From: Mustelus asterias
Lineage: Eukaryota
Reading direction: 5' to 3'
NCBI RefSeq assembly: GCF_964213995.1
Contig: NC_135820.1
Coordinates: 32,426,001-32,490,000 of the forward strand
DNA: 64,000 nucleotides
The notes beneath the pieces are model-generated. The model saw only the letters and a program-made list of their open reading frames with translations, searched no databases and was not told where the DNA came from. This document shows, piece after piece, positions 10,051-59,412 of the stretch; the stretch's first letter is position 1, and each line of letters begins with the position of its first letter. Made by a program: the position numbers and the translations under genes.

Positions 10051-11025
10051 AATGGTTATATCACTAGACTAATGGTCCAGAGAACCTGAGTACAAATCCT
10101 GGTAAGAAGTTTAATAACACCAGGCTAAAGTCCAACAGGTTTATTTGGCAGCAAAAGCCACACTTTGCTACCAAATAAACCTGTTGGACTTTAACCTGGT
10201 GTTGTTAAACTTCTTACTGTGTTTACCCCAGTCCAACGCCGACATCTTCACATTACAAATCCTGGGACAGCAGCTAGAGTAATTTATATTGATTTAATTA
10301 AGTAAATCTGGAATAAAATGTAGGATCAGTAATAGCAATTATGCAGCTGTTGATTCCTATGAAAACCCATCTGGTTCACTCATATCCTTTAGGGAAGGAA
10401 ATCTGCTGCCCTCACCTGCTCTGGCCTACATGTGACTCCAGACCCACAGCAATGTGGTTGATTCTCAACTTCACCCTGAAATGGCCTAGCAAGCCACTTA
10501 GCTGTACCAAAACTGTGACAGAAAAGTCAAAATGGAATAAAACCTGGCGACCGCCCAGTGGAAAAATAACGGCCCATTCGACCCTGCAAAATCTTCCTTC
10601 TCAACTTCCGGGGGCTTGTGCTGAAATTGGGAGAGCTGTCCCACAGATGAGTCAATTAAGTGCCTGAAATAGTTACACTCACCAAATGACACCTTACGCT
10701 CAATGTCCGTATCATATCCAATACCCTATTCCCCTGGCAAGGTAGAATCAGTGGAGTGATATATAGTCAGAAAGGAATTACCCCAAGTGTCCTCAGCATT
10801 GACGCCAGGCTCAATAAAGCCATGGAATAAGATCAAACATGGGCAAGGAAAATTCCTACTGATTCCCACCTATTGCCCTCCCTCAGCTGATGAATCAATA
10901 CTCCTTCATGTTGAACACCACATGGAAGAAACACAGAGTAGCAAATGCACAGAACATGCTCTGGTTGGACTTCAATGCCCATCATCAAGAATGGCTCAGT
11001 AGAACCCTTATTGACCTAGCTAGTA
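10051..11025 (+). mobile_element. CR1-group LINE 'family B', 5' part (tRNA-like head, 5'UTR, APE endonuclease)
   Basis: ORF 10787-11002 (KHGQGKFLLIPTYCPPSADESILLHVEHHMEE) is APE-like. The 5'UTR is shared with 61781-62140, 52505-52783 and 36690-36900. Confidence 0.75.
10103..10253. mobile_element. Penelope pLTR-derived hairpin insertion (family 1)
   Basis: Inverted arms of about 50 bp plus a one-sided tail. TSD TACAAATCCTGG at 10091-10102 and 10254-10265. Confidence 0.85.
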
Positions 11026-24965: not shown

Positions 24966-25209
24966 CAACAAAAACAGAAAATGCTGGAAAATCTCAGCAG
25001 GTCTGACAGCAACTGTGGGGAGAGAATAGAGCCAATGTTTCGAGTCTGGATGACCCTTCATCAGGCAGCTCTGATGAAGGGTCATCTCGACTCGAAATGT
25101 TGGCTCTATTCTCTCTCCCCACAGTTGCTGTCAAACCTGCTGAGATTTTCCAGCATTTTCTGTTGTTGTTTCGGATTCCAGCATCTGCAGTATTTTGCTT
25201 TTATCCTAG
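24966..25209. mobile_element. Penelope pLTR-derived hairpin insertion (family 2), complete
   Basis: Inverted arms of about 100 bp plus a roughly 35-40 bp one-sided tail. TSD TGG(A/G)GATGTATG at 24954-24965 and 25210-25221. Confidence 0.85.
25067..25105 (+). ncRNA. Minimal type I hammerhead ribozyme motif (mirror copy on minus strand at about 25030-25068)
   Basis: AGCT-CTGATGA-A-GGGTC-ATCTC-GACTC-GAAA-TG-T-T-GGCT: CUGANGA and GAAA core, stem II GGGUC/GACUC, stem I AGCU/GGCU. The stem III palindrome ACGT appears decayed to ATGT. Confidence 0.65.
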
Positions 25210-26306: not shown

Positions 26307-26372
26307 CAGTTGTGGCATTTGCTACCAAATAAACCTGTTGGACTTTAACCTGATGTTGTTAGACTTCTTACT
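26307..26372 (+). mobile_element. Penelope pLTR fragment (family 1), single arm
   Basis: Matches about 53881-53946. TSD ATTCTCACAC at 26297-26306 and 26373-26382. Confidence 0.8.
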
Positions 26373-26941
26373 ATTCTCACACGCCACAGGGATGAGTCAC
26401 TGGGTGAGCGCAGTGCTGCCCCCAAGCTTGGTGGCATGAACAGACCGGGTGGAGGCTCGGTGGGTGAACAAAATGAAATTTAACGCCAAACATTCAATAC
26501 AAAATGGTGATTATCTACACTAAATTTTCCTGTACCCACCAAGTGCCTATTGCTTCCTCATCACCCTGACCCTCACACTATGACTAGGTGTATCCCCAGG
26601 ATGCACAACTGAGGTTGAGGTGGCCTGTTGACTTCCATACCCTTTTGCCTGAGATGACCTTGGTGGGCGTTTCCTGGGGGACAGGGACCTTGAGGGTCCA
26701 GGCCTGCTTTCAGACAGCACGGATGTTTGACTGCTTCCTTCGTCAGTGACAGGGTCTGGAGCTGTGTCCGGCAAAGGGAAGGGTGTGTCAGATGGGCCAG
26801 AAACACCGAGCTGGCTGGAGGACCCTGGGTTGTACTCCTGCCAATACCCTTCGGGTTCCCAGGGACCCATATGCTCCTCCATGGAATGGAGTGAGGGGTG
26901 TGCGAGTGGGTCCAGTGATAAACTGGGGGTGCTTCACTTAC

Positions 26942-47147: not shown

Positions 47148-48148
47148 AATTACTCAATTTCTGTTGGGATTGTTTGGGATCTAGGAGATAATTAAGCCGA
47201 TGTTTCTGTTGCTAGTTGTGATCATGTGAGCCTTACTGAGCACTGAGTGGCTAGTGCTTGGTTAAGTACTCTCAGGCACTCACTCTTACCAATGAAGCCA
47301 ATGGTTCAGGAATGGAAAGGTGAAAGGAGAGATACAAAGAAAACTTTCAAGGAAAAAGTAAAAACAGAAAATGTTGGAAATGATCAGCAGCATCTGGGGA
47401 GAGAGAACCGAATTAATTGGTTAAATTTTCAGGCGAGTGTCAGGACCCCAGTGTCAGGACAATGTTAGGAGCCACAACCTATGTTTCTCATCAGAGAACC
47501 CACCAGCGCAACCTTCTTGGAGGTGACCTCCTAATTGGCTACAACCGCATTCATCATCCTACTCAAGTGGAAGTATGTTCCCACAGCAGGAGTCTGAGAG
47601 GTCCCACAACATGCAATGTCCAACAGCCCCACTGGAGGAGGCAAATGCTGCTGAGGCAGAAAGACAATCGCAAGGATGTCTCAACATGGAGGAACTGCCA
47701 TGTGTCTTCTGCGGGTATAAGAATGACAAGGTCCACAGCTGGTAGGGCTAGCGGTGTGGAAGGAGCATGCCCCTCTACAGAATTGACTTCCACTGCCCTG
47801 AAAACCCTGCAGCTCCCTCTTGGGGCATTGAGCCTCTGGCTTTAACAACATCCCCTGTCTGCATTCAGGAAGCTGCCTCAAACAAGCTGGCAGGTTCTGC
47901 ATTCAGCAGTGGGGGGTGTTAATCTGATGATGGGCAACTGCTGTCACTTACGGAAAGTGGCCTCTGAGTGCAAATTTAATCGGTCCCCTAACTCTGTGGA
48001 GCAGGCTTACAGCATTGTTCCCAGGGGGAATAAAAGAGAGGCAGGAACATACCTTGGAGACATTCCCATTGGTTTTCCTCCTATTTACCAGTCACCCAGT
48101 CTCTCAACACACCTTCACAGGGTGCTCCAGGTCTGGGGAACTGTTGTC

Positions 48149-48182
48149 CTGTTGGACTTTAACCTGGTGTTGTTAAACTTCT
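48149..48182 (+). mobile_element. 34-bp Penelope pLTR terminus (family 1)
   Basis: CTGTTGGACTTTAACCTGGTGTTGTTAAACTTCT flanked by AACTGTTGTC (48139-48148) and AACAGTTGTC (48183-48192). Confidence 0.65.
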
Positions 48183-49168
48183 AACAGTTGTCTGCACAGA
48201 TTTGGCCAGAACTGCTGAGAATTTCCAGCATTTTCTGATTTTATTTCAGATTTCTCCCATCCGCAGTGTTTTCAGTATTGAAAGATAAAAGAGTAGTTTG
48301 TCAAAGAACAACATCAAAATGGCTCTGGCAAGTTTGACGTCCAGCCAGTAATCTAATTTTCCTTTTGGAGATCCAAATGAGCAACAATTGCACAAGGAGG
48401 ATTATGTTAATATGGGGAGGTCAGTGGAAATCTCAAGTGACTACTGATTTGCTTTCTTGTTTTGAACACAGCGATAGTCTTAATCCTCAAACCATCTGTT
48501 GCTAGGCTGAGTTCCTGTTTGGCCTATGCACTAGTGATATTTTACAGTTCAGTATTAAAACACCTACAAAGTACTGGCATGAAGCTAAAATACTTAAATG
48601 AGGCTCTCACAGCAGGTAGCAAAAAACAGTCACAGTGGGGGACACAGCTACTCTCCATGAGTCATAACTCCTAATGTTTACCTACCAGAAAATTTCAGCT
48701 TTTATATTTAAATAACCAAATTGAATCATAGCATGTAATAGATTCAATAAATTCGCCAGCAAAGAATGAACGATCTAGCTGGTATAAATAATGTTGAACC
48801 TTATCACATTAAGTAAGGCCTCACTGGAGCCTGGGCCTAGTGACAGGGTTTCTAAAATAGATCCCGCATACACCTGAAACTGCAGGATTTGTGCAGAGTG
48901 AGGCAGATGGATGCATATGCTAAACAATTAATTGGGATAATGCATAAGCAAATGGGTTCTGCACTGGATTATGAAAGACTGAGGTGATAAAGATATTTAG
49001 CTATCGCCTTGTGCTTTTATCTGCTTTCACTAACATTTAAGCATGATTATGTTCAGCCTGCCAAGTTACAATTCCATCGTCCTTTTTTTAATGGAAGTTG
49101 TCCCTTAGATTTAACAATCCAAGTGGGATTGCCAGCTGTGACTATATGTATTCCTGGAGCTTTCTCCT

Positions 49169-52783: not shown

Positions 52784-53774
52784 TTCTCCTAACATTCTAT
52801 CAGTGACGGTGAACTGCTCAAAATAGAAAACTCACCACAGAACTGATTTGCTGATATATTTTGAGAGGCTTTCAGAAGCTAAACCAATTATGGCATCTTT
52901 CTGTTGCTGAGATCAACAGTTGAAATTGTTTTAAAGGATGTGTGATAGGTCTAAGAAATATTTTTCTGCAAGAGTTATGACATATGTATCTTGAATTCAG
53001 ATCTTACAGAGACGTTGCCTGTCTTTGCAATGAGGCAAATTTGATTGGATGGGTGGAATAAACTCACTGCTCATTGTCCTGTATGGAAACCTTTAACTTG
53101 TTCAGGTTGGGCACCAGTGATCTCTTCAAGCCTTGCTGGAAGATTGCTCTTTGGCCTACAGGGCACAACTCAATTAATGAAACTTTACACATGCCCAGCA
53201 GGAATCTAAAATAGCATTGAGAGTCCTAAGTATGCCATCCGACCCTGATTTGGAGAAGTGAACAATATTCTGGCACAGGCCAAAATGGGAGTAGGTCAAT
53301 TAATGACAGCAACACAGGATGTACTTACCTAGTAGTTAGGATCCGACTACCATTTGGGCTGTAAAACCGAGTGAAAGAGGGATGTAAATCAGTCCCAGTC
53401 TGTGGTCATTGTGGACTGCTAATGCACTGTTGTAGAAACATAATAGGGTAGAAAGGCTCAGGTTGGAGAGTCTGGTGCCTTCTTGACTCCCCCAGTGGCT
53501 AGTTGAGGTCCTTTAAAATGTTATCTGTGTTACTGGGAGCAGGGGGCTGGGGATGGGGTGTGGAATCCTCCTTCCTCGTGAAGGGATTCACTGGTGGCAA
53601 GTGCTGACCCAGCTGGAAGACAAGCTCCTGCCCATTATACTGTGCCCTCTCTTCTCTCACCTGGCCTCCTTAACTGGTCATGATGTGGAGATGCCGGCGT
53701 TGGACTGGGGTAAGCACAGTAAGAAGTCTCACAACACCAGGTTAAAGTCCAACAGGTTTATTTGGTAGCAAATA

Positions 53775-53811
53775 CCATAAGCTTTCGAAGCAATGCTCCT
53801 TCGTCAGATGG
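53775..53811 (-). ncRNA. Mirror hammerhead ribozyme motif
   Basis: Same as the plus copy except GCTCC becomes GCTTC, which keeps stem II paired as a G-U wobble. Confidence 0.75.
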
Positions 53812-53852
53812 AGTGGTCTCTGTTCGAGACCTGTTCGAGAACAGAGACCACT

Positions 53853-53889
53853 CCATCTGACGAAGGAGCATTGCTCCGAAAGCTTATGG
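53853..53889 (+). ncRNA. Minimal type I hammerhead ribozyme motif
   Basis: CCAT-CTGACGA-A-GGAGC-ATT-GCTCC-GAAA-GC-T-T-ATGG: intact core, stem I CCAU/AUGG, stem II GGAGC/GCUCC, palindromic AGCU stem III. Confidence 0.78.
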
Positions 53890-56314
53890 TATTTGCTACC
53901 AAATAAACCTGTTGGACTTTAACCTGGTGTTGTGAGACTTCTTACTCTCCTTAACTGGTCCAGGTGACCCCACACCTCCCTTATGTTCTGGGCCTCCAGC
54001 ACTGATTCTCCTCCTTAGGCCTACTGTTGTAATGGCAGTGGTCACCCACTCTTGATGGCACCGCTGGTACTGGATAGCTGCTAACCTCTGCTTTGCTTCA
54101 GATTTCTCCTTGCAGGACCCTTGACTGAAGCCAGCAGAATTTCTGGTTGAGCTTCCCAGATATGGCCGCAAGAAGACTGTCACTCCCAGTGTGGGTTGGC
54201 CCACTGCCGCAACCAGTAAATTCTGCTGATATAAACATTCATTTGACAAACTATTGTAGAACTAAACCATACAGACCTGAACATGCTCAGTTCTAATCAC
54301 TAGTTCATGTAGATTTTTCTGTTTCCAGTCAGTGGAGTTGCTGGGCTCGGGAGTGGGGAGAAAACAGAAATCAGCCACAGTTTTTCACTGCTGATGACTT
54401 GCAAATAACTCATGCTAGATTGTGCAGGTGTAGCTGTCAACTGGGGGCAGGAGCAGCTTGGATGTCTTCCACAGTTGAACTACCTGTTGACAATCACTAT
54501 ATCAGTCGAATGGCCACTTGACCAAGGCATTGGAGTATTATGAAAATATTGCAATAATATTTTGGCATACAGTGACTTTTTGAGAGGGAAAATAGCAGAA
54601 AGAGGAAGGGAATTTTAAAAAGAAATGCACAACTGAGCACAGGTATGCATTTTCAAATCAGGCAATAGCTTAACGAGTATTGGTTTTATTTTGATTCAAA
54701 AAACAAACAACTATTAGGAACACAAGAATCTTGCTGGTGGTAGAGGGAGAAATCTAAAAACTGCAATGTTTGGTTTTGTTCACCTTTATGAATAAGTTCT
54801 CTTGTGTATTTATAGTGATTCTTTACCAGCAGTATTGAAGCTAAATGGGGCACTTTAAGATAATGCGTGCATGACATCACTGCAAGTGACATCATTGACC
54901 GTTTGCGTGGGTAACTGTGCAGAGTGGGTTTGCAGCCTGTACTGAACACATCTCCTTAGTGAAGTTCCTTAGTTCATTGAACTTCCATGGCCTCCTAGCC
55001 TCAACAAGCTGAAGCTCAGATTGTACCTTATTTTAAGAGAGGAAAGCAAGGTAATGCTAAAGAGTCATGGCATACGCAGGTCCTTCCATAGAGAGAAAAT
55101 GGTGGGAGCTTTTCGAGCTGTGGAACCATTTGATGAGGATACAGAGTGATGGAGCTCTTATAAAGAACGGTTTGACTATTTTATACAAACCAACTAGATA
55201 GTAGAGAACATAAAAATTCCTACATTCTTAAGCATAATGGGGGTGTGGGGGGGAAGGACATTTTACCTACTCAGGGGACTGATGCAACTGGCAAAGCCAG
55301 GCACAAAGACATATTGTGGAGATTTTCCAGGGCTACTATTCACAAAAACCTTTTAGTCATTGCAGGAAGTCTAGATTTCATAAGAACAATCAAGAAGATG
55401 GAAAATTGATTGCACAATTTGTGGTTACACTGAAAAGACTGGCAGAGCACTGCCTGTTCAAGGATGTATTAAACGATACAATCTGAGATGGACTGGTCTG
55501 TGGTTTGTGGAGTGAGGCAATTCCCAACTGAAAGCAACCTGACTCAAAGAAAGCCATTGAAGTTGTCATATAAATGGGGCCAACAGCCAAAGAAACTCAG
55601 CAGTTAACTTCACAAGATGTCAAGCAAAACTCAAATGTAAACACTGACTCGTACTTTCCACAGATGTGCAAAGGGAAGACACTTCCCAGCAGATTGTTTG
55701 TGCAAAGATACCATGTGCACAAACTGTGGAAGAAAAGGCCGCAATAAGTGTGCTTGTTCAAAAAAGAAGCTAGCTTTGGGAAAAGTAGTGAAAAGCAAGA
55801 GCTGAATAAAACAGGCAAACAGAACAAAGGAAAAAGTGTCCATGTAGTTCAAACAGGACAAAAGGAGAGAATTGATTCACAGTCTGTGGATGAATTGTCA
55901 TTGAACGTGCTAGCCATTGCTGGTGCTACAAATAGATACTGAGTCACTCCACTGCTGGATGTGCAGGCAGTAAAGATGGAGGTGGACACTGGGGCAGCAG
56001 TCTTGCTGGTGCCAGAAACTGCCTACAAAGAAAAGCTCCAACATATTCCTCTGAGGCTCTTGAAAATAGTGTTGAAAACTTACACTAGAGAAGTGGTTCC
56101 ATTGAAAGGTCATATTGACGTACAATTAAATGTCTAAAGAGCAGATTAGTCCTTATACATAGTCAAAGGAAATTATCTGGTACTAATGGGTAGGACTTAG
56201 TTGGAAAAGATCCAACTAAATTGGGATGAAGTAAACTGAATGAACGATTCAGAATCAGGCCGTACCAAAATCCTGAAGAAGTACACTTTAGTTTTCAACG
56301 GTGAACCGAAAAAA

Positions 56315-56605: not shown

Positions 56606-57932
56606 ACATGAAGGACATCTCAGTGAAGCATGAAGGACATCTCAGTGAAGTTGAAGCACAAAGAAGGGAATCAGGTGAAATACTTAATGGCAAAATTGGT
56701 ATCTTATGCAATCAGACCAAAAGCAGATGTGGATTTAGAATGACTGGTAAAGACGGGGGTCCTGGAACCTAGCAACATGGGCTACACCCATCGTCCCAAT
56801 AATAAAAAAAGACAGATCCGAATGGATTTGTCGTAACTTCAAATTAACTATTAATCCTGTACTCCATGCAGGACAATACCCTCCACCATTGAATGATTAC
56901 CTGTCACAGGGTTGGTTGGAGGCCAATGCTTTAGCAAGATCGATCTCAGTCAAGCATACTTACAAATGAACAGAGATCAGGATTTAGAACAGTTCCTGAC
57001 GATTGTGACACATAAAGGATTATTTTGATACAGAAGATTACCATTTGGCATCACTTCAGCTCCAGCATTGTTCCAAAGAGCTGTGGACCAAATCTCATGT
57101 GGGTTGAGCAGAGTCCAGTGTTGCCTGGATGACATTCTGGTTACTGATAAAGACAAGGAAGAACATCTGCGCAACCTGGATGCCAAACTACAAAGATTAG
57201 ATGGTTATTGATCAAGAGTACAAAAGGACAAATGTGAATTTTTCCAATCTTCAATCAAATATTTGGGACATGTAATCAATGCCAAGGACTTATCAAAGCT
57301 ATTACCATGGCACCCGCATCACAGAATGTTAATCAACTTTGATCCTTCTTAGGCTCACTAAACTACCAGAGAAGTTTTGTCCCCAATTTGGTGACCATTG
57401 TGAAATGCTTGAATAATCTTCTGTATCAAAATTAAAAAGTGGAAGTGGGTGGGTGGATCAATGTGAGAGAGCATTCATGCAAACCAAGGAGGCGCTTCTC
57501 AAGACAGACATCCTGACACATTTTGATCCAAACCTCACTTTCCAGTTAGGAAGTGACACATCACTTTTAGCTGTTGGGATGATAGTATCCCACATCATGC
57601 CTTCAGGTGAAGAGAAACCTATAGCTTCTGCGTCCAGGACATTGAATAAAGCCGAATGCAATTATATACATGTCGAGAAAGAAGCTTAATGAATTAAATT
57701 TGGGATAAAAAGGTTCTATCAATTCCTGTACATGAGAAAATTTACATTATTGATGGACTATCATCATTAGCAACAATTTTTGGACCACATAGAGGGATTC
57801 CATCACTGGCAGCGAGCAGAATGCAGAGATGGCCATTGCTATTGTCAGCATACACGTATGCTATCAACTATCATCAATCAAGTCTGCATGGTAATGCAAA
57901 TGGACTTTCCTGACTACTCTTACAAACTAGTT

Positions 57933-58252
57933 ATAGAAACCCTACAGCGCAGAAGGAGGCCATTTCAGCCCATCGAGTCTGCACCGACAACAATCACACC
58001 TATGCCCTATCACAGTAACCCCACACAGTTACGCCACTAATCCCTCTAATCTATGCATCCCAGGGCAATTTAACAGGGCCAATGAACCTAATCTGCACAT
58101 TTTTGGACTGTGGGAGTAAACCAAAGCACCCAGAGGAAACCCATGCAGACACGGGGAGAAGGTGCAAACTCCACACAGACAGTGACCCAAGCCTGAAATC
58201 AAACATGGGTCCCTGGAGCTTTGAGGCAGCAATGCTAACCACTGTGCCACCC
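57933..58252 (-). mobile_element. V-SINE with CR1-type tail, inserted in Gypsy pol
   Basis: Head, V-domain and tail ...GGCCTCCTTCTGCGCTGTAGGGTTTCTAT. Confidence 0.9.
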
Positions 58253-59412
58253 ATCGACTTCATCAACAAGTCATTCGAATGGATGCATCTTTTTCAAACA
58301 GGGAGATAATACTCAGTTCACCGCAGGACAAGTGAAGAAGTTCACCCAAAGTGATCCAATACACTTCAAGGAAATGGACACGCTGTTTCGAGGCAAGACC
58401 TCAGTAGTGAGCCCTGATTTGAAGCCGTACTCCACTTGAAGATTTGAATTATCTATACAAACAGGATGTCTCTTTTGGGGGATGAGATTAATCATTCCAC
58501 TGCCATTAAGAAGACAAATATTGAACCAATAACATGAAGGCCATTGTGGCAATGTGAGAATGAAGGTGATAGCTAGGAGCTATTTCTGGTGGCCTGGATT
58601 AGACATTAAAACAGACAAAAAGGGGCAAACGTGTTCATCTTGTGCAAAAGTGGTGGCAAAAATGACCACCATTGGCACCATTGAAATCTTGGGAATGGCC
58701 AGAAGAGGCTTGGAATTGTTTACACATTGACTATGCAAGACTGTTTGAAGGGGGCATGTTTCTTATTATAGTCGATGTTCATTCAAAATGGACAGAAGTT
58801 GCCATCATGAAGTCAAAGTCATCAGAGAAGGTAGTTGAGAGATTGGGAGAAATTTTTAGCAGATTCTGTTTCTCTGAGCAATTGGTGAGTGATGTTTGGC
58901 CACAGTTCATATCTCAAGGACTTGAAAGCTTCTTGTAGGAAAATGGAATACAATATATTAGGTCCACACCATACCGTCCTGCTATGTACAGATTAGCAGA
59001 ACATTCTGTGCAACAATGAAGCACATGTTAAAGAAAACCAGTTGGTAAATGTTTGAGTCAGTTCCTGCTCATGTATGGGAATATTGCTCACTCAACAACA
59101 AATGTTTCTCAGACATTACTGATGATTAAATAAGAATTAGATATAGCATTCAACTTACAATAAACACCCAAGACAAAATAAATCATCCAGAAAAAGCAGA
59201 TCGTATGGCAGAAAAACAAAGTGAAACATCATATCTTCCACCAGGAACAAGAAGTTCTGGCAAGAAACTATACCATAGAAGAAAAATGGGCTCCTACACG
59301 GTCATAGCACAGGCCAGACCTGACCTGTCTCCTACATTGTCCAAACCTGAGACAATGGCATCTGGAGGAGGTGTACAGATCAACTATTGACAAATGTTCA
59401 TCAGAAGCAGAA

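Follow-up and report, generated by a model that had tools for sequence, protein, structure and literature searches.

A truncated back-to-back Penelope-like insertion in Mustelus asterias and a possible genomic footprint of its hammerhead ribozyme

Canonical insertions of EN+ Penelope-like elements (PLEs) contain an inverted, 5'-truncated copy and a tail of 30 to 40 bp (PMC8557442, PMC3846280). The pLTRs of metazoan PLEs carry minimal type I hammerhead ribozymes that are described as having low activity in vitro and no evidence of activity in vivo, and pairs of the motif 100 to 700 bp apart on opposite strands were noted as truncated PLEs (PMC4209133). In vitro, a Poseidon enzyme, a predicted dimer, nicks and extends both strands and begins at two sites that flank the tail; no RNA ends are reported at its ribozyme cut, and cleavage was unneeded in vitro (PMC11167929). 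Finally, non-LTR retrozymes of animals are non-coding, carry a type I hammerhead and are derived from or related to PLE ends (PMC7229834; bioRxiv 10.64898/2026.07.22.740005). Here, we describe an insertion at 53666-53960 of the window, which is the whole 64,000-nt stretch of DNA analyzed. The insertion is ordinary and is one of thousands of truncated back-to-back Penelope copies. Both its head-to-head layout with a tail (PMC8557442, PMC3846280) and its opposite-strand motif pair (PMC4209133) are of kinds already known.

The insertion at 53666-53960 is almost certainly a dead, truncated Penelope-like copy (Table 1). It shares with canonical EN+ PLE insertions the head-to-head inverted pLTRs, one-sided tail, short target duplication, 5' truncation and partial tandems, but unlike them the unit has shrunk to two short arms (PMC8557442, PMC3846280). 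As the first-pass annotation had described, the inverted arms are 108 bp each and differ at one position (53788/53876). The arms are separated by a 13-nt center, and the hairpin has a predicted fold energy of -217 kcal/mol (z = -30.6 versus 200 shuffles). The direct repeat CTCCTTAACTGGTC (14 bp, at 53666-53679 and 53947-53960) encloses 267 bp. Thus, the perfect 14-bp duplication, 267-bp insert and 38-bp tail of that annotation hold as letters, but the geometry, judged by the target of the family, favors a duplication of 12 bp, an insert of 269 bp and a tail of 40 nt instead. With CTG-N16-CAG at this insertion, the nicks were probably staggered by 12 nt, and two of the 14 repeated base pairs would then come from the element; the element's own continuation also matches the final 2 to 3 bases of the left repeat. 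Nine of the 13 center bases (53830-53838) are element sequence with one change, and the filler therefore amounts to only 4 bases. One contig in sequencing run X1, from this locus or another, is without those 4 bases.

Table 1. Features of the insertion at 53666-53960, in window positions
Feature	Position	Strand	Remark
Left half of symmetric target (CTG 53661-53663, 2 bases, then duplicated stretch)	53658-53665	+	Reads CTG-N16-CAG
Left target-site duplication, apparently 14 bp, or 12 bp should its last two bases be element derived	53666-53679	+	Empty site in run X5
One-sided tail (38 nt), ends at start codon of element ORF	53680-53717	-	36-nt tail pattern, 3,360 exact genome matches
Left arm: 5'-truncated copy of element 3' end (pLTR), sense on -	53718-53825	-	With tail, 99.3% identical over 145 nt to intact copy L135
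Minimal type I hammerhead with a stem II G-U; cut predicted between 53779 and 53778	53775-53811	-	Predicted from core letters and covariation
Unique junction of 4-nt filler and 9 element-derived nt, coinciding with the natural CTGTT/AACAG inverted repeat of the element	53826-53838	.	
Right arm: the same 3' end, truncated at 5' and lacking the tail, sense on +	53839-53946	+	
Minimal type I hammerhead, predicted cut after 53885	53853-53889	+	Predicted from core letters and covariation
Right target-site duplication and right half of symmetric target (CAG 53961-53963)	53947-53963	+	

The insertion is real and recent, as indicated by an empty site in a relative and by the right junction in a second sample of the window's organism (X3, record 16); the junctions fell outside the coverage of run X4. 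In the related organism, a contig (run X5, record 25) joins 53100-53665 directly to 53947-54500 with a single target copy, and the flanks differ from the window by 44 letters in about 1,120 (about 4%). The empty site and the 99% identity of the arms agree with the young age first assigned to the insertion. A search for a host gene by Pfam covered 300 open frames, of which 150 were from the 212 unmasked frames at 20-63 kb of the window and 150 from the 157 of 1-20 kb plus 40 kb of neighboring sequence. It gave only LTR-retroelement domains, a result that short exons would escape and that leaves room for a long intron. Broken LTR-retroelement pol remnants (RVT_1, RT_RNaseH, Integrase_H2C2 and rve) lie at window 57029-58935.

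The source of the insertion fits an autonomous, Neptune-like Penelope element, as judged from its sequence. In the 3.68 Gb of genome searched, the arms match the 3' end of an intact copy (L135) at 99%, bearing out the origin from a Penelope-like pLTR that the first-pass annotation had drawn from the letters, and the tail runs up to the start codon of a long ORF. When the N-terminal part of that ORF was used as query, 126 places were scored, and a 912/913-codon open frame was present in about 60 by eye. Tandem units of the element are 3,097 bp, and five of its ORFs translated intact (892-893 aa). RVT_1 scored over the cut-off in two full ORFs (Pfam, E 4e-10), and GIY-YIG was matched under the cut-off on a fragment (Pfam, E 0.016) with no match on full ORFs. 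By eye, the C terminus contains VY...YIG, R and Cys/His residues, and a C-x4-C-x2-C precedes the endonuclease region, making it a Cys-rich motif between RT and EN such as is also a feature of Nematis (PMC8557442). A PDB sequence search with the 893-aa ORF gave no match at E up to 1. The family as a whole shows several traits of EN+ PLEs: tandem or partial-tandem pLTR copies, an inverted truncated copy, a tail of 30 to 40 bp and a hammerhead in the pLTR. We note that a sister subfamily (L131, L132, L136-L144) has many full-length copies that are 99.7 to 100% identical to one another, some in tandem, and may still be active. The window itself also contains an older hairpin of the same family, at 10102-10253, in which both arms end 3' of the ribozyme and a 12-bp duplication flanks, and a short arm fragment at 48148-48188 that adjoins another repeat.

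Each strand of the hairpin encodes a candidate hammerhead with a CUGACGA...GAAA core, a 5-bp stem II, a 4-bp stem I and an AGCU palindrome. On the + strand, CUGACGA lies at 53857-53863, stem II at 53865-53877 and GAAA at 53878-53881, with the mirror arrangement on the - strand, and the predicted cut bond is directly after GAAAGCUU. The arms have the core letters expected of a hammerhead (CUGANGA, GAAA, U16.1 and H17), and they have in common with the metazoan PLE motifs a short stem I, an unpaired base 5' of stem II, G10.1-C11.1 and a palindromic 15.2-16.2 (PMC4209133). Across 18 hand-picked related variants, which represent few independent events, stems I and II are paired in 95.9% of cells and double changes occur in 9 cells (stem I, U-A to C-G; stem II, A-U, G-U and G-C). 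The mismatch between the arms changes a stem II G-C to a G-U on the - strand, where pairing is retained as had been predicted. A covariance-model search, which had been suggested as a check, gave no hammerhead match in Rfam at E up to 10 and only hairpin-driven microRNA matches under gathering scores. A motif that lacks the stem III loop would be expected to be missed in this way. The complete minimal type I hammerhead claimed for each arm, palindromic stem III included, is upheld by core letters and stem covariation. Both subfamilies have, 12 to 13 nt 5' of the core, a pyrimidine-rich tract ending in AACAG that resembles a 3' splice site (L135:6319-6345 and L132, at the 3' end of the unit), and in Drosophila Penelope an intron end is reported at helix I (PMC4209133). 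The tract overlaps the natural inverted repeat where the window copy folds.

The structure of the window copy is typical of its family. Copies were picked only by the tail: 90 of the first 100 tail matches listed, all on contig C1 and all with an intact tail, comprised 65 inverted repeats, 19 solo copies, 4 internal inversions and 2 that run off the locus. Thus, the layout of an inverted copy with a short tail, recognized from the single locus, recurs in 65 of the 90. A fixed fold point near the ribozyme, suggested by a first search, was rejected as query bias on the evidence of this tail-only sample. The second arm starts mostly 28 to 37 nt short of the tail end in the 65 inverted repeats, and duplications in the tail-picked copies are 8 to 15 bp with a mode of 12. 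Removal of one duplicate and of eight copies with more than 60 nt between arms left 56 hairpins, of which 55 have distinct centers and 27 have a full ribozyme in both arms. Arms extend from less than 40 to more than 2,000 nt, reaching the UTR and ORF of the element. The center of the window copy has one genome occurrence, even with up to 2 mismatches allowed. One hairpin center, at the cut site, is recurrent, with 160 exact genome copies; among 30 loci examined (L271-L300), the tail is on the left in 22 and on the right in 7, and at least 2 source variants are present. We conclude that the recurrent center arose repeatedly and is a junction hotspot rather than a lineage. In the window copy and in most other copies of this genome the fold is beside the ribozyme, whereas a small and sharp class has it at the cut.

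Most of the sampled insertions occupy a symmetric target, TG-N16-CA, with a probable 12-nt stagger, as read from the flanking letters. In 54 hairpins with a duplication of at least 10 bp, CTG stands just ahead of the duplication in 44 and CAG just past it in 38 (background, 13% per window). TG-N16-CA spans the target in 40 of the 54, compared with 1 to 11 at six other spacings, and is found in 18 of 22, 13 of 20 and 10 of 17 insertions of three other sets (41 of 59 together). The two-fold symmetry of the target suggests a dimer. We note that independent insertions occupy the same or nearly the same target within other abundant repeats (L042, L074 and L120; L059 and L073), which is consistent with a sequence-specific endonuclease.

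Whether the ribozyme acts in vivo was considered from the positions at which arms end, counted back from the base before the start codon such that the core is at -125 and the predicted cut is after -97. Truncation hazard per 100 nt is 0.7 to 1.6 from -83 to -145 versus 0.1 to 0.6 elsewhere (145 arms). In the window's subfamily, among 100 filtered matches listed, read by eye with indel variants set aside, 44 arms end at -95 to -97 and 46 within the ten positions that follow; of 30 loci tallied by script, 17 have their end within 1 nt of the cut and 13 at the seven positions beyond, an excess weaker than that of the sister subfamily. The long arm of the recurrent center ends at -96. In the sister subfamily, the cut is 2 nt further from a shared anchor and the edge shifts correspondingly: among the matches listed, 24 arms were read by eye as ending at the cut, 9 at +1/+2 and 5 further in. 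Genome-wide, 1,160 sister arms end at the predicted cut versus 159 three bases further in, a raw ratio of 7-fold that falls to about 2.7 for junction letters admitted by both filters (19 of 100 and 51 of 100 matches listed, by eye), the filters having required different junction letters. As 1,160 arms of about 50,000 end at the cut, roughly 3 to 5% of templates would be cut. Moreover, when one arm ends at the cut, its partner passes the cut in 1 of 26 hairpins, versus 83 of 112 unselected arms of the other subfamily. We think that the peak of ends reflects ribozyme cleavage in vivo, if with modest confidence, and unlike for the motifs described in PMC4209133, as far as the available text goes, the genomic ends here give indirect evidence of cutting.

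The same excess could instead be made by a reverse transcriptase that pauses at an AAGCUU dimer helix, by a bound protein or by a bias in joining, which together constitute a serious alternative that we nonetheless find somewhat less convincing. A pause at the AAGCUU helix would make a similar edge, hazard is raised across the whole ribozyme region, and junction letters at the cut are strongly T biased, favoring one of the filters. About 95% of arms read through the cut site, with 2 of 100 matches listed ending there. Many arm ends lie 1 to 4 nt short of the cut, and the comparison of 1,160 with 159 is one of inward positions without a clean control on the 3' side. A pause or joining bias, however, would not readily explain why, in two subfamilies that differ in sequence, a 2-nt shift of the cut is matched by a 2-nt shift of the edge or why partner arms almost never pass the cut, and stem I is already unwound by the enzyme when it reaches the cut bond. 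A run-off peak from an Inr-like CCACTCC transcription start was also considered and rejected: ends are spread from -121 to -140 and rise only at the far edge (by eye). After arms that end at the cut (L331-L360 and matches listed), the second letter is T in about three-quarters of 100 matches listed (by eye), perhaps representing untemplated run-off additions. Elsewhere in the window, a solo tail-less family arm at 26310-26380, flanked by a 10-bp repeat, has its start at the predicted cut or no more than a few bases away. A hairpin of a different hammerhead family at 24967-25170, with a CUGAUGA core on both strands, is folded just 5' of the core and offers a natural control for the footprint.

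How the two arms come to lie head to head is suggested by the arms themselves. The median number of letter differences is 1 between arms of one insertion and 4 between arms of different insertions (30 pairs), the latter score including a penalty for short alignments. A longer stem II loop is on both arms in all 5 pairs having such a loop, and arm lengths correlate (rho 0.75), falling within 5 nt of each other in 18 of 56 hairpins (3.1 expected). An origin of the arms from two independent RNAs was ruled out by the concordance of variants; a known variant site distinguishes the two arms in 2 of the 30 pairs (L081 and L103). In 12 of 56 hairpins the tail-less arm exceeds its partner by more than 15 nt, and in L066 and L107 the tail-bearing arm is the tail alone. 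Longer tail-less arms and the in vitro two-start result with Poseidon (PMC11167929) lead us to infer that one sense RNA was primed twice and that the products were then end-joined, and we regard two primings on one RNA as the probable origin.

We propose that a dimeric element enzyme nicks both strands of the symmetric target, 12 bases apart, and that both nicked strands prime cDNAs on one sense RNA. One cDNA would begin at the start codon of the ORF and the other about 36 nt upstream, giving the one-sided tail. Both cDNAs would run toward the 5' end of the RNA and then stop, and the two cDNA ends would be joined via short homologies and templated filler. The hammerhead would have come along with the pLTR as a passenger. 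Within full-length elements it likely cleaves a few percent of the templates, and these would leave arms ending exactly at the cut. Both arms of 53666-53960 pass the cut site, so this copy would derive from uncut RNA. Altogether, 53666-53960 is in all likelihood a single truncated head-to-head insertion of the element 3' end; it was likely primed twice on one RNA by a dimer, and its ribozymes are predicted to be silenced.

Alternatively, the second arm might be made by fold-back, either because one cDNA snaps back or because an antisense RNA primes itself, the latter having been hypothesized in PMC3846280. Arm lengths are often equal, both arms share a variant, and centers are often at short natural inverted repeats with templated filler, as in 53666-53960, all of which fold-back would explain. 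A tail-bearing cDNA cannot, however, yield a tail-less arm longer than itself, and some centers at the cut are perfect loopless palindromes (11 of 100 matches listed, about 7 loci, by eye). Moreover, ends that track the cut in a sense RNA argue against an antisense template, and a symmetric target fits two primers. We therefore consider fold-back unlikely as the general origin of the second arm, although some copies may have arisen in that way.

LINE-1 twin priming is comparable in that both target strands prime on one RNA. A simple internal inversion like that of LINE-1 is found in 4 of 90 copies, but most copies here would start both primings near the 3' end, such that the same stretch is copied twice. 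Poseidon PAc of Anolis carolinensis is alike in its two initiation sites flanking the tail, extension of both strands, predicted dimer and mostly uncut templates (PMC11167929). PAc, however, initiates about 111 to 118 nt inside the ORF, has its cut 26 nt past the start codon and uses an AT-rich target, (PMC11167929), whereas the present family has a tail that stops at the start codon, a cut 97 to 99 nt ahead of that codon and TG-N16-CA as its target. In the available parts of the accounts of canonical EN+ PLE insertions (PMC8557442, PMC3846280), neither TG-N16-CA with a 12-nt stagger nor a pile-up of ends at the cut is described. The literature searched likewise gave no TG-N16-CA consensus, same-RNA double priming or peak of truncations at the cut, although sources beyond it, Repbase among them, may hold some of these.

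The first-pass annotation had also raised an RNA switch, in which a host transcript of the hairpin would cleave itself or not depending on the order of folding. Both cores are intact and the stems covary across subfamilies, in favor of a switch; the covariation, however, mirrors selection on the element and not on the 53666-53960 copy. The arms are head to head, and the antisense arm is transcribed first on both strands. In predictions of stepwise folding, the duplex grows as the sense arm emerges, and freeing stems I and II from the hairpin costs a predicted 62 (+) and 66 (-) kcal/mol. Moreover, there is one ribozyme copy per strand and the minimal type is thought to need two, the two-ribozyme layout arises by default in 27 of 56 hairpins, and the insertion is absent in the relative. 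Both ribozymes are thus predicted to be silenced by the hairpin, and that 53666-53960 acts as a switch or self-cleaving element in a host transcript is very improbable.

Least credible of all is that the hairpin is a non-autonomous, retrozyme-like unit spreading by itself, as was first supposed, for although the copy is young and one family junction recurs 160 times, retrozymes are head-to-tail tandems with two same-strand ribozymes and circles (PMC7229834; bioRxiv 10.64898/2026.07.22.740005), whereas 53666-53960 is a single inverted event with no tandem ribozyme pair on one strand, in a family with no fixed unit at many sites, variable arm lengths and a recurrent junction with the tail on either side; in the comparison of centers that the first-pass annotation had itself named as a refutation, the center of this copy is unique in the genome and 55 of 56 sampled centers are distinct.

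What the insertion means lies in its family. Two questions about PLEs are called open in the available parts of the literature: the origin of the inverted and tail structures (PMC8557442, PMC3846280) and cutting in vivo by minimal hammerheads (PMC4209133, PMC11167929). This genome holds tens of thousands of young copies together with intact, near-identical source elements, and the family yields exact predictions: which target consensus is used, that the stagger is 12 nt, that there are two start sites and that a single bond is cut. Perhaps, and here our confidence is nearly balanced but falls short, the copies are a fossil record of the Penelope cycle, in which a dimer cuts the palindromic TG-N16-CA with a 12-nt stagger and copies one sense RNA from two starts, and in which copies that end at one bond are evidence of cleavage in vivo. 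If true, the arms ending at that bond would record a weak Penelope hammerhead cutting its own RNA in living cells.
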